Of a stretch of DNA of 13,721 nucleotides, positions 2,599 through 13,721 are shown piece after piece. The DNA comes from an uncultured bacterium (GTDB lineage Bacteria; AUK180), in assembly GCA_964453935.1 (NCBI GenBank), contig CAYVPX010000017.1, positions 1 to 13,721 on the forward strand, written 5' to 3'. Position 1 is the stretch's first letter, and each line of letters opens with the position of its first letter. The position numbers and the translations under genes were made by a program. Below the pieces are notes generated by a model. It did not search any database. It was not told the origin of the DNA and was given only the letters and a program-made list of their open reading frames with translations.

Positions 2599-2626
2599 TT
2601 GAGAAAAATTATTAAAAAGTTATAAT
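2599..2626 (+). promoter_or_regulatory. Putative sigma70 promoter of the lipid-module operon: TTGAGA, 16-nt spacer, TATAAT
   Basis: TTGAGA at 2599-2604 and TATAAT at 2621-2626 form a near-consensus pair. It lies inside the IS remnant and points into the DedA gene. The predicted TSS is ~2633-2635, at the second in-frame ATG (2634). Confidence 0.3.
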
Positions 2627-3251
2627 GATATTTATGGCTTATTTAGTAGAAAATTTCCTTAACCATTTTCACACGCTTTATTTGTTTGGGATAATTTTAA
2701 TTTATCTATTTTTACCTTTTGGTTTGGCAATTTCAGAAGAGATTTTGACTATTATAATAGGTATTTTGGTGGGCAGGGGTTATGTCTCACCTTTTTCAGG
2801 AATTGTTGGCACTGTTTTAGGTGTTTATCTATCTGACATTATCTGTTATTTTATGGGAGTTTTAGTCGATAAATCATTAAAATTACCTATTTTGAGCAAA
2901 ATATATAAAAAAAAGGATAGAATCAGTATATATGATAAATTTCATAATAAATTCAAAGGCGCTTTTATTTTAATAATAAAATTTCTGGTAGGCCTTAAAT
3001 TCTGGATATATGTAGGTGCAGGATACAAAAAGTTCAATTTAAAAACATTTTTAATTGAAGATTTTTTTGCTGCTATAATTTTTAGTCTAATTTATTTAGT
3101 TATTGGTTTTTACTTTGGGTCCCATTTGAATGAAATTTTAGTATTTTTAAATAATTTTAAATACTTACTTATTGCTTTAGTTGTAATAGGGATCACAATA
3201 TTTATTTTAAGGAGAAAAAAACATGAGAAAGACACATCCCATTTATCTTGA
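2625..3251 (+). CDS. DedA/VTT-family (SNARE-associated) integral membrane protein
   Basis: The protein has multiple TM segments. DedA-like motifs include LFLPFGLAISEEILTIIIGILVG (F-x-P..E..L..G core) and a second re-entrant-like element KFKGAFILIIKFLVGLKFWIYVGAG (K/RF-x-P/G-x-R/K-x6-AG pattern). The annotated ATG 2625 sits inside the putative -10 box, so ATG 2634 (MAYLV...) may be the real start. The 3' end overlaps the next gene by 29 nt. Confidence 0.55.
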   Translation: MIFMAYLVENFLNHFHTLYLFGIILIYLFLPFGLAISEEILTIIIGILVGRGYVSPFSGIVGTVLGVYLSDIICYFMGVLVDKSLKLPILSKIYKKKDRISIYDKFHNKFKGAFILIIKFLVGLKFWIYVGAGYKKFNLKTFLIEDFFAAIIFSLIYLVIGFYFGSHLNEILVFLNNFKYLLIALVVIGITIFILRRKKHEKDTSHLS

Positions 3252-4326
3252 TAAAAATGAGAATTTATACGGTCCTTCACACCTCGTTTATGAGTTCGTG
3301 CTAAAAATTAATAAGGAAATTTTTTCCTATTATTCAAGAAATTCAATTAACAGAATTTCTGAAAGCATTTTAAAATATTTGAAATATGATGCCAATAAAA
3401 TTATAATTTCCTATGGTGGCGAAGACCTTTTATGGCAAATTACAAATTTTATCCATGGTGAAGGGGAAAAGAAGCTACTTATTGCAGATAATTCGTGGTG
3501 GTATTATAGAAAAATTGCTGAAAAGGTAGGACTGAAAATAAAAACTTATAAAACTGTAAAAAAGGGAGATTATTGGGAAAATGGTTATGAAAATTTACTG
3601 AAAACTTTGAAAACCTATGATGGGAAATATGTTTTACTATGTTCGCCAAATAATCCTACAGGCGAGAGGCTTTTGAAAAATGAACTTTCAGAAATATTAA
3701 AAACTCATGAGAATAAATTATTTGTACTTGATGAAGCATATTGGGGGTTTGACTTTGATGAGGATGGAAGAATTGAGGATTATAATGAATTTTTAGAGGA
3801 ACATCCAAACCTGATTATATTACGAACCTTTTCAAAATTTTTTGCACTGGCTGGTGTTCGCATTGGTTTTGCTCTTTACGGTAAAAAGTGGCAAAAATTT
3901 AATGATTCCAATTATCGTTATCTTGGATATAATAAATTTTCTGAAGAAATTGTTATGAGAACATTGAGATCTTGCAAATATTATCATAAAATTGCCAGAA
4001 GAATTATGAAAGATAGAGAAAAAACTTATAATTTACTTAAAAACTTTGATGCTTATACTCCATTTAGGACATATACAAATTTTATAATTGTTAAAATAAA
4101 TAATTTAAATTTGAAGGAAGATTTAAAAAAAGCACTCACTAAAAAAAATATTGTAATTAAATGGTTTTCAGATGATGATAAAAATATGAAAGATTTTGTC
4201 AGGATAACCATTGGCAAAACTACACAAATGAAAAAGCTATGGAAAATATTTTTAAAAACAGCATTAAAGTATGAAAAAGACAAAAAGAATATTCCAATTA
4301 TTTCAAAGATCATTGAAGGGGAATAA
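3223..4326 (+). CDS. PLP-dependent class-I/II aminotransferase fold enzyme of the HisC/CobD subfamily (histidinol-phosphate aminotransferase / threonine-phosphate decarboxylase-like)
   Basis: Motifs: DKNENLYGPS (HisC N-terminal NENPxGPS), CSPNNPTGERL (NPxNPTG), VLDEAYWGF (IDEAY), and ILRTFSKFFALAGVRIGFAL (RTFSKAxGLAGLRxGY with the PLP lysine). A good RBS AAGGAGA sits 7 nt upstream of ATG 3223. Sequence alone cannot separate transaminase from decarboxylase chemistry. Confidence 0.8.
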   Translation: MRKTHPIYLDKNENLYGPSHLVYEFVLKINKEIFSYYSRNSINRISESILKYLKYDANKIIISYGGEDLLWQITNFIHGEGEKKLLIADNSWWYYRKIAEKVGLKIKTYKTVKKGDYWENGYENLLKTLKTYDGKYVLLCSPNNPTGERLLKNELSEILKTHENKLFVLDEAYWGFDFDEDGRIEDYNEFLEEHPNLIILRTFSKFFALAGVRIGFALYGKKWQKFNDSNYRYLGYNKFSEEIVMRTLRSCKYYHKIARRIMKDREKTYNLLKNFDAYTPFRTYTNFIIVKINNLNLKEDLKKALTKKNIVIKWFSDDDKNMKDFVRITIGKTTQMKKLWKIFLKTALKYEKDKKNIPIISKIIEGE

Positions 4327-5089
4327 AGCTGAAGAGTTTTTTGATAAACTTTTTTTCCGCCCAATTTCTTTTATTGTTGCATATTCTTTTTATAAGTTAA
4401 ATATATCACCGAATATAGTTACAATTTTATCAGGGTTTTCTGCTTTATTGGCATTTTTCGGGTTTTATAAGAATCAATTAATTTTAGGGTTTATATTTTT
4501 CTTTTTATCTTATTTGTTTGATCTTGCCGATGGTCAGGTTGCTCGCCTTTCAAAAAAGAGTTCACCCCTTGGCCGTATATTGGATGGTTATGTGGATATC
4601 TTTTCCTATATATGTGTCGCTTTTGGATTATCTTTTTACTTATTCCACCAAAACCATACATATACAGGATTCATATTATTTACTATACTCGGAATCTCTC
4701 AATCACTACATACATTACTATTTGATGGATTGAGAAATGAATATTTATGCTTAACGAAAAATTTACAAAATTGTAGAGAATACATGTTAAAAATGGACAT
4801 TCAAGAAGAAAAAGCAAAAAAGATGGCAAATTGGTATAATAAATTACAATGCATGATATTTAAAAAAATTGTTTTATTAGAAAAATTAGATGATAAAAAA
4901 CGTGATTTTTATATTTTATTCAACTCTTTTTTAGGAAGTGGAACTAAATATTTTTTCCTTTTTTTAGGCATTATTTTTCATAAAATTACGATTACCTTAT
5001 GGTTTTTAATCATTATTACCAATATTATTTTTATTATCTCTTATTTATGGGGAGCACATTATGAGAATAATTATACTGGCAGCAGGTAG
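4271..5089 (+). CDS. CDP-alcohol phosphatidyltransferase family integral membrane enzyme
   Basis: The signature D-G-x2-A-R-x8-G-x3-D-x3-D is present as FDLADGQVARLSKKSSPLGRILDGYVDIFSY. An N-terminal PNxxT element (ISPNIVTILSG) and several TM helices are also present. The only available start is ATG 4271, which overlaps the upstream gene by 56 nt. Confidence 0.8.
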   Translation: MKKTKRIFQLFQRSLKGNKAEEFFDKLFFRPISFIVAYSFYKLNISPNIVTILSGFSALLAFFGFYKNQLILGFIFFFLSYLFDLADGQVARLSKKSSPLGRILDGYVDIFSYICVAFGLSFYLFHQNHTYTGFILFTILGISQSLHTLLFDGLRNEYLCLTKNLQNCREYMLKMDIQEEKAKKMANWYNKLQCMIFKKIVLLEKLDDKKRDFYILFNSFLGSGTKYFFLFLGIIFHKITITLWFLIIITNIIFIISYLWGAHYENNYTGSR

Positions 5090-5777
5090 AGGACGAAGGC
5101 TTTCTCCTTTAACTGATACTACACATAAAACGCTTTTAAAAATTGGTGAAAAAACAATTTTGGAGCATACAATTGATAATTTTAAATTTTATAAAATACA
5201 TGATTTTCAATTTGTACTCGGTTATAGAGCAAATGATATCATTGATTTCCTGGATAAAAAGGGTATAAATTATTCATATGTAATAAATGATATCTGGGAT
5301 AAAACCAACAATATATATTCGCTATATCTTGCATTAAAAGAAGGTGATTCAGAAGATATTATTTTAATTGACAGTGATATCTTTTTTTCATATAAAATAT
5401 TGGAATCACTGTTTAGGCAAAAAGAAACTGCTTTTTTAGTCAGAAAAGGAAAATTAACAGAAGAGGATATGAAGGTTGTCATAAAAGATAATAGAATATT
5501 AAAAATATCAAAAGAAATACCTCTAAAAGAAGCAAGTGGTGAATCAATAGGTATTGAATATTTTACTAAAAAAGATTATGCTCTTCTTAAAAGTGAATTA
5601 GGGGATGTGATTGAAAATGAAACAAATGGAAAAAATCTTTTTTATGAGTATGCTTTTCAACGATTAATAGATAAAAAACTCATATCTCCCTATTCAATAA
5701 TCATAAATGATTTTGCCTGTGAAATAGACACGAGAGAAGACCTTGATTTTGCAAAAAATATTTTAAAAAAAAATTAA
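5061..5777 (+). CDS. LicC-family nucleotidyltransferase (CTP:phospho-alcohol cytidylyltransferase-like)
   Basis: N-terminal NTP-binding loop MRIIILAAGRGRRLSPLT. The sequence aligns well to S. pneumoniae LicC through the family-specific blocks FVLGY, TNNIYSLYLA (LicC YNNFYSLYL) and C-terminal EIDTREDL (LicC EIDSVQDY). RBS GGGGAG lies 6 nt upstream of the ATG. The start overlaps the upstream gene by 29 nt. Confidence 0.85.
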   Translation: MRIIILAAGRGRRLSPLTDTTHKTLLKIGEKTILEHTIDNFKFYKIHDFQFVLGYRANDIIDFLDKKGINYSYVINDIWDKTNNIYSLYLALKEGDSEDIILIDSDIFFSYKILESLFRQKETAFLVRKGKLTEEDMKVVIKDNRILKISKEIPLKEASGESIGIEYFTKKDYALLKSELGDVIENETNGKNLFYEYAFQRLIDKKLISPYSIIINDFACEIDTREDLDFAKNILKKN

Positions 5778-5910
5778 AAAAGATATGAAAAATACAGTAT
5801 GTCGAGACAACAGACAGATTTTATACTTAATTGGGTTTAAAAAGTAAAAAAGTAAATCCCAGCCCCTTAAAAAAATTTGATTTTTTTTAAAAAATAAATT
5901 AAAATAAAAT

Positions 5911-6555
5911 ATGTTAGACAAAGAGAAAATAGACCAATTGGTAGAAAAAGTTAAGAATGAATTTCCAAAGGGAATGTCACAAAATAATAATAAATTAATT
6001 ACTTTAGAGGTATCGGCTCACCATTTACATATTTCAAGGGAACATCTTGATATACTTTTCGGCAAGGGTTATGAACTTACATCTATTAAAGCTCTCTCTC
6101 AACCCGGACAGTATGCTGCAAAAGAAACAGTACGGATCGTGGGACCCAATGGCGAATACGATAATGTAAGAATATTGGGACCAGTAAGAAGTGAAACACA
6201 GGTTGAGATTGCAATGACCGATTGTTTCATTATTGGTATTGAACCGGTTATTAGAATGTCAGGTGATATTAATGGAACACCTGGTTGCATTATTTGGGGA
6301 CCAAAAGGGCATCTTGAATTAAAAAAAGGGGTCATTGTCGCAAAAAGACACTTTCACTGCACCCCGCAAACGGCAGAGAACCTTGGTTTAAAGAACAATG
6401 ATGTTGTTTCCGCTGAAATAAGCGGAGAACGAGGCGGTATATTGAGAAACATAATTGTTAGGGTTAGTGATAAATATGCAGATGCCATTCACCTTGATAC
6501 AGATGAAGGCAATGGTCTTGGTGTCAAGACCGGTGATCGTGCATATATTAAATAA
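5911..6555 (+). CDS. pduL: PduL-type phosphotransacylase (phosphate acetyl/propanoyltransferase) with N-terminal encapsulation-peptide-like helix
   Basis: The protein is colinear with Salmonella PduL across the conserved blocks: HHLHIS / HVHL-like, [69 protein letters not shown]. It has the two-repeat PduL architecture. The N-terminus [18 protein letters not shown] is a predicted amphipathic helix. Confidence 0.9.
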
Positions 6556-6569
6556 AATCGGAGGTAGAT

Positions 6570-6854
6570 ATGGAAGCATTAGGTATGATTGAAACAAAAA
6601 GTTTGGTTGCATGTATTGAAGCTGCAGATGCAATGGTAAAAGCAGCAAAGGTACAGCTTGTTGCTTATGAAAAAACTGGCGGCGGTTATGTAACAGCTTT
6701 GGTAAGAGGCGATGTAGCGGCTTGTAAAGCAGCAACAGATGCAGGTGCCGCAGCAGCACAAAGAGTTGGCGAATTGGTAAGTGTTCATGTAATTCCAAGA
6801 CCTCATCAGAATCTTGACGGAATTTTCCCTATCAAAGCTAAAAGCAACAAATAG
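6570..6854 (+). CDS. BMC-H hexameric shell protein (PduA/EutM/CcmK family, Pfam PF00936-type)
   Basis: [79 protein letters not shown] is near-identical in pattern to PduA ([52 protein letters not shown]). RBS GGAGGT is upstream. Confidence 0.95.
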
Positions 6855-6893
6855 AGGAAGTGGGATCTTTTTCCCACCACATAAGGACTTATT

Positions 6894-7163
6894 ATGTTAA
6901 TTGGAAAAGTTATCGGTAGAGTTGTTGCTACAAGGAAGGAAGAAAAACTTCATGGAGCAAAATTATTGGTGGTTCAGCCGGTTGGTCTTAATATGAAACC
7001 GCAGGGAGCACCCATTGTTTGCATTGATTCTGTAGATGCAGGATTCAAGGAAACCGTTCTCATTGTTCAGGGTTCTTCCGCTCGTTTGGTAACAAATCAA
7101 GGAAATAACCCTGTCGACGCTGCAATAGTTGGAATCATTGATTCCATTAAAATTGACGATTAG
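6894..7163 (+). CDS. BMC-P pentameric vertex protein (EutN/CcmL/PduN family), paralog 1
   Basis: 89 aa. N-terminal GKVIGRVVAT, then KLLVVQPV and D-x-VDAG-x-x-ETVLIVQGSSAR, as in EutN/PduN. Confidence 0.9.
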   Translation: MLIGKVIGRVVATRKEEKLHGAKLLVVQPVGLNMKPQGAPIVCIDSVDAGFKETVLIVQGSSARLVTNQGNNPVDAAIVGIIDSIKIDD

Positions 7164-7171
7164 GGAGAGAG

Positions 7172-8602
7172 ATGATGGATAAAAATGAGATTGAGAAATT
7201 GGTAAGAAAGGTCGTAGATGAATTCGTTAAGGAGGGCGTAGCAATTTCAAATTCGCAAAATGCTATTTCATCAAAAGAAGGAATATTTTCAAATATTGAT
7301 GATGCTATTACGGCAGCAAGAATAGCACAGAAGGACATTGAAAAACTTCCCCTTGATATAAGAAGCAAAATCGTTGACAATATGAAAAAGGTGGCACTTG
7401 AAAATGCCGATATGCTTGGAGAAATGGCTGTTGAGGAAACTGGAATGGGCAGAATGCCGGATAAAGCGGACAAGGTAAGGTTAGTTGCTAATAAAACACC
7501 TGGGGTTGAAGATGTAAAACCCATGGTCTATACGGGTGATCACGGAATGGTACTTGAAGAAAGAGCACCTTACGGGGTCATAGGAAGTCTTACACCTTCC
7601 ACCAATCCCCCATCTACGATTGTAAATAATGGGATCAGTGCCATTGCCGGTGGTAATGCCATTGTTTTTAATCCGCATCCGGCGGCAAAGAATGTTTCAA
7701 ACAAGACCGTTCAATTAATGCATCGTGCAATTATTGATGCAGGGGGACCAAAAAACCTTATCTGCAGTATTGAAACGCCTTCACAAGAAAGTAGTGAAAA
7801 GTTAATGAAACATCCGTATCTTAATCTACTCTTGGCAACAGGCGGGGAGTTCATGGTACATCTTGCAATGAATTCGGGAAAAAAGACCATTGTAGGAGGT
7901 CCGGGAAATCCGCCCTGTCTTGTTGATGAAACGGCGGACATATCCAAAGCCGCAAAGGATATCGTCATCTCTTCATCATTTGATAATAATGTGGTTTGCG
8001 TCCTTGAGAAGGAGGTCTTTGTCGTAGAATCCGTTGCAGATCAACTTATCTCTGAGATGAAAAAACACAATGTTTATGAAATAAAGGGTGACGATATAAA
8101 AAGGGTTACAGATCTTTTAATTGCAAAAGATGAGGGCACGGGTTACAGGGTTCCAACTATTAATAAAAAATATGTTGGAAAAGACCCATATATTATTCTT
8201 AAAGATGCGGGTATCACTATTCCTCAGAATACACGGCTTGCCATTATGCAGGTTAATTGGGACCATCCCATGGTGCAGGTTGAGCAACTTTTACCCGTAC
8301 TGCCCATTGTAAGGGTAAAGGACTGGGAAGATGGAGCCATGCATTCTCTTGAAACGGAACATCATTACAGGCACACCTTTATAATGCATTCAACAAATAT
8401 TGATAGATTATCATATATGGCAAGAGAATGTGATGCATCTATCTTTGTAAAGAATGGTATGTCCCTGCAAGGTCTCGGATATATGGGCGAAGGACCTACA
8501 ACAATGACCATCGCTACTCCGACAGGAGACGGTATAACAACAGCAATGACCTTTACAAGACGCAGACGCTGTGCATTAATAGATAGGTTCAGGATAGTAT
8601 AA
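7172..8602 (+). CDS. CoA-acylating aldehyde dehydrogenase (EutE/PduP family) with N-terminal encapsulation-peptide-like helix
   Basis: The EutE/PduP-type catalytic region FDNNVVCVLEKEVFVVE contains the active-site Cys, and the characteristic C-terminus TFTRRRRCALIDRFRIV is present. The N-terminus MMDKNEIEKLVRKVVDEF closely resembles the PduL N-terminus. RBS GGGAGAGAG is upstream. Confidence 0.9.
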   Translation: MMDKNEIEKLVRKVVDEFVKEGVAISNSQNAISSKEGIFSNIDDAITAARIAQKDIEKLPLDIRSKIVDNMKKVALENADMLGEMAVEETGMGRMPDKADKVRLVANKTPGVEDVKPMVYTGDHGMVLEERAPYGVIGSLTPSTNPPSTIVNNGISAIAGGNAIVFNPHPAAKNVSNKTVQLMHRAIIDAGGPKNLICSIETPSQESSEKLMKHPYLNLLLATGGEFMVHLAMNSGKKTIVGGPGNPPCLVDETADISKAAKDIVISSSFDNNVVCVLEKEVFVVESVADQLISEMKKHNVYEIKGDDIKRVTDLLIAKDEGTGYRVPTINKKYVGKDPYIILKDAGITIPQNTRLAIMQVNWDHPMVQVEQLLPVLPIVRVKDWEDGAMHSLETEHHYRHTFIMHSTNIDRLSYMARECDASIFVKNGMSLQGLGYMGEGPTTMTIATPTGDGITTAMTFTRRRRCALIDRFRIV

Positions 8603-8610
8603 AGAGTACA

Positions 8611-9927
8611 ATGCAATTAAATGATATTCAAAAAGCAGGGATTATTGGGTGTGGCGGCGCAGGTTTTCCCACATTCTTCAAACTTAAAAGTGAGGTTGAA
8701 ACACTCATCATAAACGGTGCAGAATGTGAACCGCTTCTGGAAACAGACAAAGAAATATTAAGGAACCATTTGGATATGGTTATTGAGGGGATTAAGACAG
8801 CAAAAGAACTTATAAAAGCGAAAGAGGTTTTTTTGGGTGTTAAGGAATACTATAAAGATCTTATTGAATATCTTAAAGAGAATGAAGAGGGATTCAAGGT
8901 ATTTCCCCTTGAGAATATCTACCCCATTGGTGATGAACAGCTTCTTGTTAAGGCTATAACAGGGAAAATAATCCCCGAAGCAGGGCTACCTCTTGATGTT
9001 GGAGTGGTGGTTCAAAATGTTGAAACAATCTATCATTTGGGAAGATTAAAAAAAGAAAACGAGAATTTTACTCATAGATTCGTTACTGTTAACGGCGAGG
9101 TTGAATTCCCATTTGTTGCGTATGTGCCCATTGGAACACCTGTTTCAGAATTATTAAATATTGCGAAACCCAAGATCCTATTAACGGATGCCAAGATAAT
9201 TGACGGCGGACCCATGATGGGTAAATTTATTACAGAGGAAGATTTTATAAAAAAAACAACCTCGGGTATCCTGGTAATTCCCAAGGAGCATAAATTGATC
9301 AGACAAAGGACACGGGATATTGACACCATAAAAAAGATATCAAGATCTGCCTGTATTCAGTGCAGAAGATGTACGGATTTTTGTCCGAGATATTTGAACG
9401 GTCACAGAATCGAGCCGCATAAGTGGATGAGAAATCTTGCTCTTGGAGAGGTACTTCCCAATGAAATGGCAAATATTTGTAGCGAGTGCGGTGTTTGCGA
9501 ACTTGTAGCATGTCCCATGGATATTTCCCCTAGATTGGTGGCACAAATAATGAAAAAACAGATGGCAGATAATGGTATGAAAAATGAGCATTATCACAAT
9601 AAGCCGGAGAAAAGCCGCGATTTTGCTGAATTAAGGAAGGTCAATACATTGAAATTAATGGAACACCTTGATATTGATCAATACAATGTTCATCCACACC
9701 TTGAGAAATTTACCATTGAGCCGGAAACAGTAAGAATATATTTGAACCAGCATATTGGAAAACCGGCAGAATCCAATGTAAAGATCAATGATAAAGTGAA
9801 AATAGGTGATGTTATAGGAAAATGCAAAGAAGGTGAGCTTTCCGTTTATTACCATGCCTCTATCTCAGGTAAGGTGGTATCTGTTGAAAATAATTATATT
9901 GATATAATAAATGAAAAAAATAGTTGA
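8611..9927 (+). CDS. PduS-like RnfC/NuoF-family flavoprotein with two [4Fe-4S] ferredoxin motifs
   Basis: The N-terminus AGIIGCGGAGFPTFFKL...INGAECEPLL matches the PduS/RnfC NADH-binding signature (GxGGAGFP, AECEP). Two CxxCxxCxxxCP motifs are present: CIQCRRCTDFCP and CSECGVCELVACP. The length of 438 aa is similar to PduS. Confidence 0.85.
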   Translation: MQLNDIQKAGIIGCGGAGFPTFFKLKSEVETLIINGAECEPLLETDKEILRNHLDMVIEGIKTAKELIKAKEVFLGVKEYYKDLIEYLKENEEGFKVFPLENIYPIGDEQLLVKAITGKIIPEAGLPLDVGVVVQNVETIYHLGRLKKENENFTHRFVTVNGEVEFPFVAYVPIGTPVSELLNIAKPKILLTDAKIIDGGPMMGKFITEEDFIKKTTSGILVIPKEHKLIRQRTRDIDTIKKISRSACIQCRRCTDFCPRYLNGHRIEPHKWMRNLALGEVLPNEMANICSECGVCELVACPMDISPRLVAQIMKKQMADNGMKNEHYHNKPEKSRDFAELRKVNTLKLMEHLDIDQYNVHPHLEKFTIEPETVRIYLNQHIGKPAESNVKINDKVKIGDVIGKCKEGELSVYYHASISGKVVSVENNYIDIINEKNS

Positions 9928-9938
9928 GGTAAGTAGTT

Positions 9939-10499
9939 ATGACTTTTAGAAATGCCATTGCCCTTGTTGAATTTAACAGTATTGCACATGGGATCGCCTT
10001 TGCAGATGAGATGGTAAAGGGCGGCAATGTTAAGCTTCTTGACAATTATCCCACATGTCCGGGGAAACATATTGTCATTGTTTCCGGAGATACTGACGCA
10101 GTAAAACAAGCGGTAAAAAATGGATTTACGGTAGGGAAGGATTTCGTTCTTGAGTACTCCATCATCCCAAATGTCCATGAAGATGTGTTAAAAGGAGCAA
10201 TGGGGATCCCATCTGTTTCATTGAATGATATAGATGCCATTGGTATCGTTGAGAGCTTTTCAATAATAAAATGTGTAGAGGCTGCAGATATGGCTTTGAA
10301 GGAATCTCAGGTAAAATTAGTGGACATGCGGCTGGGAAAAGCACTTGGTGGAAAAGCATACTTTATTCTCACCGGAGCGGTTGGAGCAGTAAAAAGCAGT
10401 GTAATGGCAGCAGTGGAATTCTTGAAGGAAAATACAAATTTGGTACAGTTCAAGATCATACCTGCTCCGGCAGATGAACTAAAAAAAAGTCTTTTATGA
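9939..10499 (+). CDS. BMC-T tandem-BMC-domain shell protein, PduT-like, with the conserved pore Fe-S cysteine
   Basis: 186 aa with two BMC domains (ALVEFNSIAHGIAFADEMVKGGNVKLL... and IGIVESFSIIKCVEAADMALKESQVKLVDMRL...). The N-terminal half aligns to Salmonella PduT, including the TICPGK motif, seen here as YPTCPGKH. Cys40 (nt 10056-10058) corresponds to the [4Fe-4S] ligand of PduT. RBS GAGGTAAG is upstream. Confidence 0.85.
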   Translation: MTFRNAIALVEFNSIAHGIAFADEMVKGGNVKLLDNYPTCPGKHIVIVSGDTDAVKQAVKNGFTVGKDFVLEYSIIPNVHEDVLKGAMGIPSVSLNDIDAIGIVESFSIIKCVEAADMALKESQVKLVDMRLGKALGGKAYFILTGAVGAVKSSVMAAVEFLKENTNLVQFKIIPAPADELKKSLL

Positions 10500-10509
10500 G
10501 AGGTAAAAA

Positions 10510-11124
10510 ATGAGAATTGCAATAGGAAGTGATCACGGTGGATTTGAATTAAAAAGAAAATTGGTCCCATTTATTGAATCCTTGGGGCATGAGGTCAGTG
10601 ATCTTGGAACATACACACCCGATTCTGTGGATTATCCCGACATTGCTGCAATTGTTGCATATGAAGTCGCAAAGGGTAATTATCCTTTTGGTATACTTAT
10701 CGATGGAGCCGGTATTGGCTCTGCCATTGCTGCAAATAAAATAAAAGGTATTCGTGCAGCCACGGTGAACAATATTTTCATGGCACAAACCGCAAGGGAG
10801 CACAACAATTCAAATATACTGGTTTTGGGAGCAGGACAAACAGGTGAAAATCTAATAAAAGATATTATCAAAATTTTTTTAAGTACACCATTTGCAGGTG
10901 GGAGACATGAAAGAAGAGTTAATAAAATCAGTAAATTAGAAGAAGCAAATCTTAAAGAGATTGAGAAATATACCAGTCCACCTAAAAAATTGATAACAGC
11001 CGACGATATTCGTTCGGCAAGTAGAAATGGCGAAAACATTCTTTATTACGTGAAGGGTGCCATTATAACTGAATTGGCTAAAGAAACTGCATTTGATCTT
11101 GGAGTGAGGATCGTAGAAAGATAA
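10510..11124 (+). CDS. RpiB/LacAB-family sugar-phosphate isomerase (ribose-5-phosphate isomerase B-like) fused to a ~60-aa C-terminal extension
   Basis: Residues 1-~140 align end-to-end with E. coli RpiB (IAIGSDHGGF, DYPD, GILIDGAGIGSAIAANKIKGIRA, REHNNSNILVLGA, GGRHERRV). The position of E. coli catalytic Cys66 is Asp65 here (GAT 10702-10704). Residues ~141-204 (SKLEEANLKEIEKYTSPPKKLITADDIRSASRNGENILYYVKGAIITELAKETAFDLGVRIVER) are extra relative to canonical ~150-aa RpiB. The stop overlaps the next start (TAATG). Confidence 0.85.
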   Translation: MRIAIGSDHGGFELKRKLVPFIESLGHEVSDLGTYTPDSVDYPDIAAIVAYEVAKGNYPFGILIDGAGIGSAIAANKIKGIRAATVNNIFMAQTAREHNNSNILVLGAGQTGENLIKDIIKIFLSTPFAGGRHERRVNKISKLEEANLKEIEKYTSPPKKLITADDIRSASRNGENILYYVKGAIITELAKETAFDLGVRIVER

Positions 11125-11390
11125 TGTTCTTGGCAAAAGTAATTGGCAAGGTTGTTCTATCACATTCCGAAGAGCAGATGCCTAAGTATAAACTTTTAAT
11201 TATTCAACCCATTAATGAGAAAGGAGAAAATACTGATGTTCCTCAAATCTCAATGGATATTGTGGGTGCCGGACCCGGGGAAACGGTGCTCGTTACCATC
11301 GGAGATGAGTCAATGCTCGGTTTTTTACCTGAACAACCGCCTGGGGATCTTTGCATTATAGGCATTGTTGATGACATAGGATTGGAATAA
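11124..11390 (+). CDS. BMC-P pentameric vertex protein, paralog 2
   Basis: 88 aa. AKVIGKVVLS...KLLIIQPI...DIVGAGPGETVLVTIGDES has the EutN/CcmL fold signature. It is TAATG-coupled to its flanking genes. Confidence 0.85.
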   Translation: MFLAKVIGKVVLSHSEEQMPKYKLLIIQPINEKGENTDVPQISMDIVGAGPGETVLVTIGDESMLGFLPEQPPGDLCIIGIVDDIGLE

Positions 11391-11668
11391 TGTATATTGG
11401 CAAGGTCATAGGTTCTGTTACCGTCTCCAAAGGAGAACCCGGACTAAAAGGCAAGAAACTCATAATCATAATGTTCCTTGATGCTAATGGCAAGGAAACG
11501 GGTAAGTACAATATTGCTGTAGATAAAATGGGTGCCGGATTTCATGAAACCGTATTATTGGTAAAGGGTAAAGAAGGAGTTGACATGCTTACAGGTTATA
11601 AACCGCCGGCAGACCTTACTATTTGCGGTATTATTGATCTTATAAATCATCCGAAAGATGGGAAATAA
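11390..11668 (+). CDS. BMC-P pentameric vertex protein, paralog 3
   Basis: 92 aa. GKVIGSVTVS...KKLIIIMFLD...DKMGAGFHETVLLVKGKEG. It is divergent from paralogs 1 and 2 but shares the pattern. Confidence 0.8.
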   Translation: MYIGKVIGSVTVSKGEPGLKGKKLIIIMFLDANGKETGKYNIAVDKMGAGFHETVLLVKGKEGVDMLTGYKPPADLTICGIIDLINHPKDGK

Positions 11669-11671
11669 ATT

Positions 11672-12322
11672 ATGGATTTAGGTTTTTTTATTTTTTTGAC
11701 AATTTTTGTTCTTATAACAGCAATTATTTTTATTGCAAGGAAGGGAGGGTTCAAAACAACCGAGAAAATTAAAGAGTTGTGGAAAGCAAACGGAATGGAT
11801 ATTCGCTTACTCGAACAAAAATTTCTGGGTATCTCCAAAAAGAAAGTAATTGCAATAAAAAGAGAACAAAAGTACTTAATAGTGGGAATGAACTGGGTGG
11901 TTAGTTCAGGAAGGAATCAAATACCATATTGGGGTATCGGTATCTTTACACATAGCGAGGTCATGAAATTTTCAATAACAAGGAGAAGACCTACTTTTTT
12001 AGATGGGAAGAGGATCAAATTAAATGATCCCGAACTTGATAAGATGCTCGTTTTAAAATGCAAGGATGAGGACTGGTTCAGAATGTACTTTAACGAAGGA
12101 GTGTTAATGGAATTTGCTCATACCATTCCCAAAAATACAATAATATCCTATGAAAAGAAATCACCTGTGAATATAAATAGTATTTTAGAGGAATTGGCAT
12201 ATGATCCCTACGAGCCCTTTATTATGGTAAAAAGAAGAGAGATCGCAGCATACTCTAAGGTATTTAATGAAACAATCGGTGTTGCTGAAAAACTCGCAAA
12301 AATATTTTTACATATTAGATAA
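11672..12322 (+). CDS. Hypothetical N-terminally membrane-anchored protein, tightly coupled to the BMC operon
   Basis: 216 aa. One N-terminal TM helix (LGFFIFLTIFVLITAIIFIA) is followed by a ~190-aa soluble domain with no motif I recognise. It starts 4 nt after the BMC-P3 stop. Its AT-rich codon use matches the flanks. Confidence 0.6.
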   Translation: MDLGFFIFLTIFVLITAIIFIARKGGFKTTEKIKELWKANGMDIRLLEQKFLGISKKKVIAIKREQKYLIVGMNWVVSSGRNQIPYWGIGIFTHSEVMKFSITRRRPTFLDGKRIKLNDPELDKMLVLKCKDEDWFRMYFNEGVLMEFAHTIPKNTIISYEKKSPVNINSILEELAYDPYEPFIMVKRREIAAYSKVFNETIGVAEKLAKIFLHIR

Positions 12323-12538
12323 GGTCCATTAGTCAATAATTGAAATAAATACTAAATGCTTAATAAAAAGGAGATAATATCACTGAATTACAGATATTCA
12401 GGGGATAAGGAACAAACAATTCATGAAATGTGATAAGGAGAAAAACTTATGGATACTATAATACAAACTTTATTCTCAAATGTAAATAGGCTTTTCTGAA
12501 AAAAGAATCAACTAAAATGGGGATGAGCAATAATTAGT

Positions 12539-13721
12539 TTATCTCGTTACTATTTTAAAAAATATCAGATTATTGGATGAAAATAAAGTTTTTGAGCTAT
12601 ATTGAAAATTATGATTTTTACGATTTCTGTAATGATAGTTTAAATATTTTTCTAAAATCGATATAAGTTTTTTCCCTATATCTGAGTTTTGTGTAACTAT
12701 TACAATATCCTTTCTGGTAATATTTTTCATTAAGTCTCTTCCTGAACTAAACCTATAATTTTTTAAAGTTTTATAATAAAATTCAGATCGTATTGTCCAA
12801 CCTATTGGTATAATTTTATATTTTTCAAAATTTTGGTATTCATGTAAAGGGCTAGCACCCTTTAATTGTTGCCACAAAGGGGCAATAGATAGAAATATTT
12901 TATCCGGGCCATAAATAGAATTAAATTTTCTAACTGAACTTTGAGCCATTTGGAATTGATTACTTGACCGAACATTTAAATTTTTTAAATTAATAAATCT
13001 TTTAATGCTTATTGGTAGCATTAAAATAATAAGAATAAGAAATATAAATTTTTCAATTTTAATATTTTCATACTTTGTAATTTTAAATGAAAAAATAATT
13101 AATCCCAAAACTAGAACATATAAAGGGTAGTTAATTCTTGTTCGAGATCTGATCATTATAATAAGGAAAATACCAATGAGGAGATAAATAAAATATGAAA
13201 TAAAAAAAATAATGATCCTTTTATTTATTTTTATTTTCCAAGACCTGATGATATTATATAGAAAAATTAAAATTGCAAATATACAAGGGAAAATAATATA
13301 TAAATAATTTCTCAAACTAACAATTGTTTTTTTTATTTCGCCCCACCAAATAAATTTTAAAAGAGGAGTTTGCCCTTTTGAATTTATTTCAAGGAAATTT
13401 TTAAATTTTTCAATGGAAAAAATTGTTTCATCATGTAAAAAAGAATACATTCCTAAAATATAATCTTCCTTAATCCAATTAACTGATGATAGTGCCATGG
13501 GGGTATTTTTATTAAAACCACCTCCAAAAAAATCGTAAAATTTTACTCTAGCATTATTATATTTTATAAATTTTGAATCTCTAAATTGTCCATTGATATT
13601 TGAAACAACAATTATTGTAATTAACAATACTCCAAAAATGATAAAAAATCGTTTCCAATTTTTAAATATAAAAAAGGTTAAACATATCGGTAATATATAT
13701 ATAGAAAAATATAATATTAAT
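12539..13721 (-). CDS. Polytopic integral membrane protein of unknown function (5' end outside window; the annotated start at 13627 is an internal TTG)
   Basis: The minus-strand frame stays open from stop 12539 to the window edge (…LILYFSIYILPICLTFFIFKNWKRFFIIFGVLLITII…). The codon at 13625-13627 is TTG, and hydrophobic segments continue upstream, so the gene is probably truncated by the window. There are at least 6 TM segments and a C-terminal soluble region. No family recognised. Confidence 0.5.
   Translation of the reverse strand, partial: LILYFSIYILPICLTFFIFKNWKRFFIIFGVLLITIIVVSNINGQFRDSKFIKYNNARVKFYDFFGGGFNKNTPMALSSVNWIKEDYILGMYSFLHDETIFSIEKFKNFLEINSKGQTPLLKFIWWGEIKKTIVSLRNYLYIIFPCIFAILIFLYNIIRSWKIKINKRIIIFFISYFIYLLIGIFLIIMIRSRTRINYPLYVLVLGLIIFSFKITKYENIKIEKFIFLILIILMLPISIKRFINLKNLNVRSSNQFQMAQSSVRKFNSIYGPDKIFLSIAPLWQQLKGASPLHEYQNFEKYKIIPIGWTIRSEFYYKTLKNYRFSSGRDLMKNITRKDIVIVTQNSDIGKKLISILEKYLNYHYRNRKNHNFQYSSKTLFSSNNLIFFKIVTR

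Follow-up and report, generated by a model that had tools for sequence, protein, structure and literature searches.

TMM transport factor A (TtfA; MSMEG_0736/Rv0383c; PDB 6t84) occurs only in mycolate producers, where it is essential and works with the MmpL3 transporter in a non-enzymatic role. Its TM helix covers amino acids 2-24, the location of its C-terminal domain in the cytoplasm is supported by experiment, and its structure is without a lipid pocket. In eukaryotes, CCDC47 (Pfam DUF1682; PDB 7tut, 7tm3 and 9i78), whose roughly 480 aa include an acidic region on the lumenal side and a coiled coil at the C-terminus, is a subunit of the ER PAT complex/multipass translocon. DUF3137 (PF11335) comprises uncharacterised bacterial membrane-anchored proteins, and functional data on them were not found in our literature searches. 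The class I T3SS chaperones and YbjN-like proteins (SycT, SicP, SpcS, AmyR and others) are soluble, about 130 aa long and without a TM anchor. In microcompartment (BMC) systems, accessory and positioning proteins (PduV, McdA/B) and cargo with encapsulation peptides are encoded amid the shell genes of BMC operons; a natural membrane tether of a BMC was not found in the literature searches.

We analysed a stretch of 13,721 nucleotides (the window) from an uncultured low-GC bacterium, in which a gene for a 216-aa protein, hereafter the target, follows the shell genes of a BMC operon. The features of this locus were as follows:

5911-11668, plus strand: whole upstream BMC operon, PduL to BMC-P3 (Pfam), a GC/GC3 block distinct from its flanks
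5911-6555, plus strand: PduL/PTAC (Pfam)
6570-6854, plus strand: BMC-H (Pfam)
6894-7163, plus strand: BMC-P1, EutN/BMC-P (Pfam)
7172-8602, plus strand: AldDH, aldehyde dehydrogenase (Pfam)
8611-9927, plus strand: RnfC/PduS-like flavo-FeS protein (Pfam)
9939-10499, plus strand: tandem-domain BMC-T (Pfam)
10510-11124, plus strand: RpiB with a C-terminal extension of about 60 aa (Pfam)
11124-11390, plus strand: BMC-P2, 88 aa (Pfam)
11390-11668, plus strand: BMC-P3, EutN/CcmL pentamer protein (Pfam PF03319, E 3.5e-22)
11654-11671, plus strand: junction, with a purine-rich Shine-Dalgarno-like run AAAGATGGGAAA in the end of BMC-P3, TAA and the spacer ATT (sequence)
11672-12322, plus strand: target ORF, ATG start, 216 aa, final cistron of the BMC operon
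11678-11737, plus strand: N-terminal TM helix, about residues 3-22 (Kyte-Doolittle), predicted N-out/C-in
11789-12319, plus strand: predicted cytoplasmic alpha/beta domain, about residues 40-216, about 175 aa, with a TtfA/CCDC47-like fold (AF2 model)
12539-13627, minus strand: convergent gene for a 362-aa multi-pass membrane protein, next after the target

The target is a genuine gene and the final cistron of a sugar-phosphate-type (SPU-like) BMC operon, whose SPU-like gene set consists of AldDH, PTAC, the PduS-like gene and RpiB. Its position directly after BMC-P3, as given in the preliminary description, was borne out: the TAA stop of BMC-P3 occupies 11666-11668, and the ATG starts at the fourth base after the stop, leaving a spacer of 3 nt. 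The target protein had no match in Pfam, even at E<=10, or in NCBIfam, even at E<=1. Profile searches for its family returned E values of 1e-114 to 1e-12, and homologs were found down to 20% identity, with lengths of 204-223 aa and an N-terminal hydrophobic helix in every case. The dN/dS ratio of the target, calculated against its orthologs in the loci L001 and L003, was 0.105-0.118, indicating purifying selection that was about twice as relaxed as in the neighbouring BMC genes (0.02-0.08). The homologs and the dN/dS ratio rule out a chance ORF.

Our analysis agreed with the earlier description of this protein as a single TM helix at the N-terminus followed by a soluble part of about 190 aa in which no motif is recognisable. 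The hydrophobic segment covers residues 3-21, where the 19-residue Kyte-Doolittle mean reached its maximum of 2.98 (at residue 3); elsewhere the mean never exceeded 1.6. The target has no K/R before the TM helix and five in the next 15 residues, and all family members with an intact N-terminus likewise have none before the helix and one to five in the 15 residues after it. Because positive charges are absent before the helix and present behind it, the positive-inside rule predicts an N-out/C-in topology, which would place the soluble domain on the cytoplasmic side. Encapsulation peptides were also considered: an amphipathic one at the N-terminus was ruled out by the uniform hydrophobicity of the helix and its low hydrophobic moment (0.40), and one at the C-terminus was rejected, as helix 198-213 is packed into the fold with a pLDDT >90.

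The AlphaFold2 model of the target, built from a 10-sequence alignment, had a mean pLDDT of 89.1 and a pTM of 0.80, and all five models reached at least 86. In the model, a single long helix of residues 3-39 combines the TM segment with a juxtamembrane helix, a four-stranded antiparallel sheet (residues 43-93) is followed by more strands and helices, and the C-terminal helix (198-213) packs on the sheet. The motifs conserved in the domain are GMNWVVS, YWGIGIF, KFSI..RRP, RIK.nD.ELD and KCKDEDWF. The top two structural neighbours of the model (m78763516bf7b) were TtfA (PDB 6t84) and CCDC47 (PDB 7tut, 9i78), and the soluble domain of the target was found to have the TtfA fold. As modelled, this fold is an elaborated form of the type-III-secretion-chaperone/YbjN-like fold; the structural scores of the T3SS chaperones and YbjN-like proteins themselves were clearly below those of TtfA and CCDC47, and T3SS genes are absent at the target locus.

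Sequence comparison gave a different picture from the fold. When the family profile was searched against all PDB sequences (6t84 included) at E<=10, there were chance matches only (IFIT1, E ~0.2), so that TtfA was not matched, and the target did not match PF11335 itself at E<=10, short of the gathering threshold of 26.1 bits for that family. A connection was obtained through a group of DUF3137-like proteins represented by P0009. All 7 members of this group (A3) matched PF11335 just under threshold (best E 4.1e-6, up to 24.9 bits), and hhalign aligned the target family without P0009 (A4) to it over 110 columns with 97.3% probability and an E value of 1.7e-11. The core common to the target family and the DUF3137-like proteins reads ...FSI...(G/K)..IK..D.E(L/F)DK...(K)(C/S)K(D/S)ED.... 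On this sequence evidence, the target family is a remote unclassified branch of a DUF3137-like superfamily, with an indirect link to PF11335 through a chain of remote homology. The domain that had been left unassigned now has a confident model and a DUF3137-like link by way of P0009, but no sequence match in the PDB.

The comparison with the described systems is one of fold and architecture. TtfA and the target have a like fold at 9% identity over the structural alignment, and both have a clear TM helix in front of the domain, whose orientation is predicted from the positive-inside rule in the target and was experimentally shown in TtfA. TtfA has an extra, poorly conserved C-terminal tail, unlike the target; it works with MmpL3, whereas no MmpL gene was seen in any examined locus of the target family, the host genomes being fragmentary MAGs. 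CCDC47 resembles the bacterial, 216-aa target in fold only, with an identity of 7-8% and without a sequence match to DUF1682. PduV and McdA/B share with the target a position amid the shell genes of a BMC operon, but they are unrelated to it in sequence and fold, and the target is tied to BMC loci in one clade only. Hence, the target fails the sequence tests for TtfA, CCDC47 and DUF3137 and yet has their fold and architecture. The relationship among the folds of TtfA, CCDC47 and DUF3137 may so far be undescribed; no paper naming both CCDC47 and TtfA was found in the literature searches.

To describe the linkage of the target to the operon, we compared three in-group lineages, namely the window with L005, L001/L002/L006, and L003, which are separated from one another by dS>1, i.e. 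synonymous sites are saturated. The target lies exactly 3 nt past the BMC-P3 stop in 3/3 of these lineages. The orthologous junctions are GAGGAGAAATAATTTATG in L001/L006 and AAGGGGGAATAAGTTATG in L003, and the SD-like runs within the BMC-P3 tail of the three lineages are GATGGGAAA, GAGGAGAAA and AAGGGGGAA. The downstream neighbour varies: in the window and L005 it is a gene for a membrane protein in convergent orientation, in L006 a co-directional MFS gene. Since the 3-nt spacer and the SD-like run were kept through saturated dS while the flank changed, it is very likely, judging from the sequences, that the target is co-transcribed with and translationally coupled to BMC-P3, as had been proposed. 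That the coupling was kept under these circumstances could reflect selection for co-expression with the BMC and a BMC role acquired within the clade. Promoter and terminator scans around the target were uninformative, with sites no more numerous than in shuffled sequence. We also observed that the target continues the reading frame of BMC-P3, with TAA and one codon between them (window 11666-11674), in all in-group loci; this shared frame is probably a by-product of the fixed spacer.

The preliminary description regarded the target as much more AT-rich than the shell genes and raised the possibility of unrelated flanking DNA. The difference was confirmed for total GC, which is 0.33 in the target and 0.37-0.42 in the BMC genes, but not for GC3, which is 0.33 in the target, 0.22-0.36 in the BMC genes and 0.15-0.24 in all six flanking genes. 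Codon positions 1 and 2 account for the lower total GC of the target, which thus reflects its amino-acid composition. GC3 groups the target with the BMC block, and the target stays on BMC-P3 while the downstream flank changes, both of which speak against flanking DNA. A sharp composition step was seen at window 5900-12330, where the BMC block stands out from flanking genes with a GC of 0.23-0.31. In L006 and L016, GC3 is about 0.3 in both the BMC genes and the flanks, and the flanks are different in every lineage. Horizontal transfer may have brought the BMC-plus-target block into the window genome.

Outside these lineages, the association was not found. The target follows BMC-P3 only in window/L005, L001/L002/L006 and L003. 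L016 comes from the MAG GCA_030622125.1 and has an AldDH and an RpiB that are 71% and 76% identical; its operon ends at the BMC-P3 ortholog, after which come what looks by eye like a tRNA gene and then alaS. In L017 (AldDH 63% and RpiB 69% identical), the operon likewise ends at BMC-P3, and a convergent CLC channel gene comes next. The family HMM detected no remnant of the target in six-frame translations of L016 and L017. In addition, 80 metagenomic RpiB loci were sampled, 17 of which had shell genes, and a family member was present in none of the 17. Thus, across orthologous and related SPU-type BMC loci, the target does not co-occur with the shell genes; the sample for linkage comprises five loci from the three in-group lineages and two loci from close out-groups, all in fragmentary metagenome assemblies. 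Because the orthologous operons and the 17 other BMC loci are without the target, the BMC works without it.

The family itself is very small. A word-indexed search among 5.8 billion proteins gave 4 clusters, an exhaustive HMMER search with the family profile among 1.84 billion 50%-identity representatives gave 8, and a contig scan found the family in 2/185,579 species-representative genomes. A scan of metagenome contigs with the family alignment added nothing to the members already in protein databases. Close homologs of the target (64-100% identity) are all directly after BMC-P3, whereas every one of the more distant members is away from BMC genes, in the following contexts:

P0004 (41% identical to the target), MAG GCA_030622125.1: preceded by V-ATPase B/D genes and genes for unknown membrane proteins
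P0005, Calescamantes-type MAGs: between queA, which comes after it, and an SF1 helicase gene, whose end it overlaps
P0007, same genomes as P0005: among unknown genes
P0008 and a tandem paralog, Logan assembly, SRR6284161 contig: located after lptF/G
DUF3137-like P0009 group (member P0140), Logan assembly, SRR22387992 contig: beside an ABC transporter and a PIN gene

These contexts are heterogeneous and do not indicate a common partner. The MFS gene after the target in L006 and the MFS gene upstream of the L016 BMC operon showed no significant similarity, and there is therefore no conserved transporter partner. Paralogs were observed in two places: the tandem pair after lptF/G lies in L015 (5497-6833), and P0005, which overlaps the stop of the SF1 helicase gene by 4 nt, and P0007 are dispersed copies on one 108-kb contig (L008, L012) of GCA_030631245.1.

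In GCA_030622125.1, the orthologous BMC operon and the target homolog P0004 are on separate contigs. The sequence of P0004 is compatible with its being an unlinked ortholog of the target, because the target evolves two to three times faster than RpiB, so that an identity of 41% can be accommodated. The linkage to the BMC is stable inside the clade and confined to this one narrow clade. The expectation that a homolog follows the BMC-P gene was thus correct within the clade and failed in L016, L017 and the distant relatives. A general BMC role, as a tether or hand-off factor, had also been suggested; outside the immediate clade, however, both of the observations named beforehand as speaking against such a role were made, in that homologs lie off BMC loci and the L016 and L017 operons end at BMC-P3. 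The target looks like a clade-specific operon add-on rather than a general part of the organelle, and its history is most simply explained by one translocation event, in which a gene that already existed independently of BMCs moved to the operon's 3' end in the clade's ancestor.

We lean towards the view, by analogy, that the target is a membrane-anchored adaptor whose ancestral role was BMC-independent and which is co-expressed with the BMC in this clade. It would be a bitopic inner-membrane protein, with a short N-terminus facing outward, one TM helix and its domain in the cytoplasm, and at the inner face of the membrane the domain would engage another protein, with a transporter or a multi-pass membrane protein as the probable partner. 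The role would be non-enzymatic, as in TtfA, the MmpL3 accessory, and CCDC47, a member of a membrane-protein biogenesis complex. The gene would have been appended to the operon only in the ancestor of the window, L001/L002/L006 and L003, where it would simply be co-expressed with the microcompartment. The adaptor function and its partner are inferred by analogy of fold at 7-9% sequence identity, and the topology from the positive-inside rule. A related scenario, which also assumes a BMC-independent ancestral role and so overlaps with the adaptor, is that the gene is a functionally unrelated hitchhiker, inserted by chance behind the last operon gene and neutrally co-expressed by read-through transcription. 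The family is otherwise unlinked to BMCs, the dN/dS of the target is about 2x that of the BMC genes, and operon ends commonly serve as insertion points, all of which would suit a passenger gene. However, under neutrality one would expect one or more of the three lineages to show a loosened arrangement or to have lost the gene, whereas the exact 3-nt spacing and the SD-like run survive saturated dS and flank turnover, and we regard this scenario as possible but unlikely.

Alternatively, the domain might bind a shell protein, e.g. the BMC-P3 pentamer or BMC-T, and act as a clade-specific tether or docking factor between BMC and membrane, serving to take up substrate, to export product or to pass on electrons from the RnfC/PduS-like protein. 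Such a function would fit a last cistron that remains 3 nt past BMC-P3 in three lineages with dS>1 and differing downstream flanks, a GC3 that puts the target in the BMC block, a domain predicted to be in the cytoplasm, where BMCs lie, and a chaperone-like fold, which is a protein-binding one. Nevertheless, the nearest out-group genome has the BMC operon and the homolog on different contigs, a second orthologous operon (L017) is without the target, and the association is absent in the other family members and in 17/17 other BMC loci; moreover, the conserved motifs are common to homologs not linked to BMCs, and no clade-specific binding surface is apparent. We therefore consider a tether quite unlikely, and the specific case in which the clade recruited a TtfA/CCDC47-like protein as an anchor docking the metabolosome at the inner membrane, e.g. 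via BMC-P3, improbable. Two further possibilities concern the protein itself. If the N-terminal segment were a signal peptide or an N-in signal anchor, the protein would be exported or face the periplasm, and a hydrophobic stretch of about 20 aa does have the length of a signal sequence; but no member with an intact N-terminus has a positive n-region, the positive charges are instead concentrated behind the helix, ...IFIA/RKGG offers no AxA-like cleavage site, its -3 residue being bulky, AF2 gives one continuous helix (residues 3-39), and the structural analogs TtfA and CCDC47 carry cytoplasmic/cytosolic domains, which makes this very improbable. The in-frame arrangement in all in-group loci would also permit stop-codon read-through across TAA-ATT, yielding a fusion of BMC-P, TM helix and domain. 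A conserved 3-nt spacer is automatically in frame, however, the stop is TAA in all lineages, the SD-like run and the ATG are kept, as for independent initiation, and homologs elsewhere are free-standing and of the same length, so that such a fusion is scarcely credible.

As it stands, the finding amounts mainly to a hypothetical protein added to an operon in a few uncultured lineages, and its BMC link is real but local. If the linkage in the clade is functional, the target is a testable candidate for positioning a protein-shelled organelle at the membrane; a tether, if true, would link uptake, export or membrane redox with the organelle, and no natural membrane tether would have been described before it for any catabolic microcompartment. 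Apart from the BMC, the analysis delineates a bacterial family that is very rare and has the 'atypical' fold known from an essential mycobacterial factor, TtfA. The combination of an N-terminal anchor and a cytoplasmic alpha/beta domain recurs in eukaryotic CCDC47 and, remotely, in DUF3137, which hints at an old widespread class of membrane-anchored adaptor proteins.

Several other features of the locus and its relatives were noted. The window RpiB (10510-11124) has an Asp at position 65 (LIDGAG) that is invariant in the 10 orthologs of A5, at the position where canonical RpiB has its catalytic Cys. Loss of the catalytic Cys and little isomerase activity have been described for SPU RpiB (PMC11585597). 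The C-terminal extension of about 60 aa showed weak matches to the EutQ N-terminus and TIGR02536 and, from its sequence, may be an encapsulation region. Deoxyribose-5-phosphate aldolase (DERA), described as the universal signature enzyme of SPU loci (PMC11585597), was not found in the window, which thus lacks the combination of AldDH plus DERA in the locus, and is not listed in the ~20-kb L016 and L017 loci; it may be encoded elsewhere in the genome.

BMC-P2 is present only in the window lineage (window, L005); in L001/L006, L003, L016 and L017, RpiB is directly followed by the BMC-P3 ortholog. Its identity to BMC-P1 and BMC-P3 is only ~36-40%, so that BMC-P2 did not arise by a recent duplication. 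In L016, two tiny ORFs and a 122-aa gene (8840-9378) interrupt the BMC operon between the RnfC/PduS-like gene and BMC-T, and the 122-aa gene matches 23S_rRNA_IVP and bAvd, the four-helix-bundle accessory protein of diversity-generating retroelements. The protein encoded at 12539-13627 on the minus strand belongs to no Pfam family, has a faint MprF-like NCBIfam match (E 0.002) and is 98% conserved in L005. At the other end of the window, 33-2228 on the minus strand encodes a Ser/Thr protein kinase with a TM segment and five PEGA domains, and beside it, at 2625-5777, lies a lipid/sugar-nucleotide cluster of VTT/DedA, aminotransferase, CDP-alcohol phosphatidyltransferase and nucleotidyltransferase genes.
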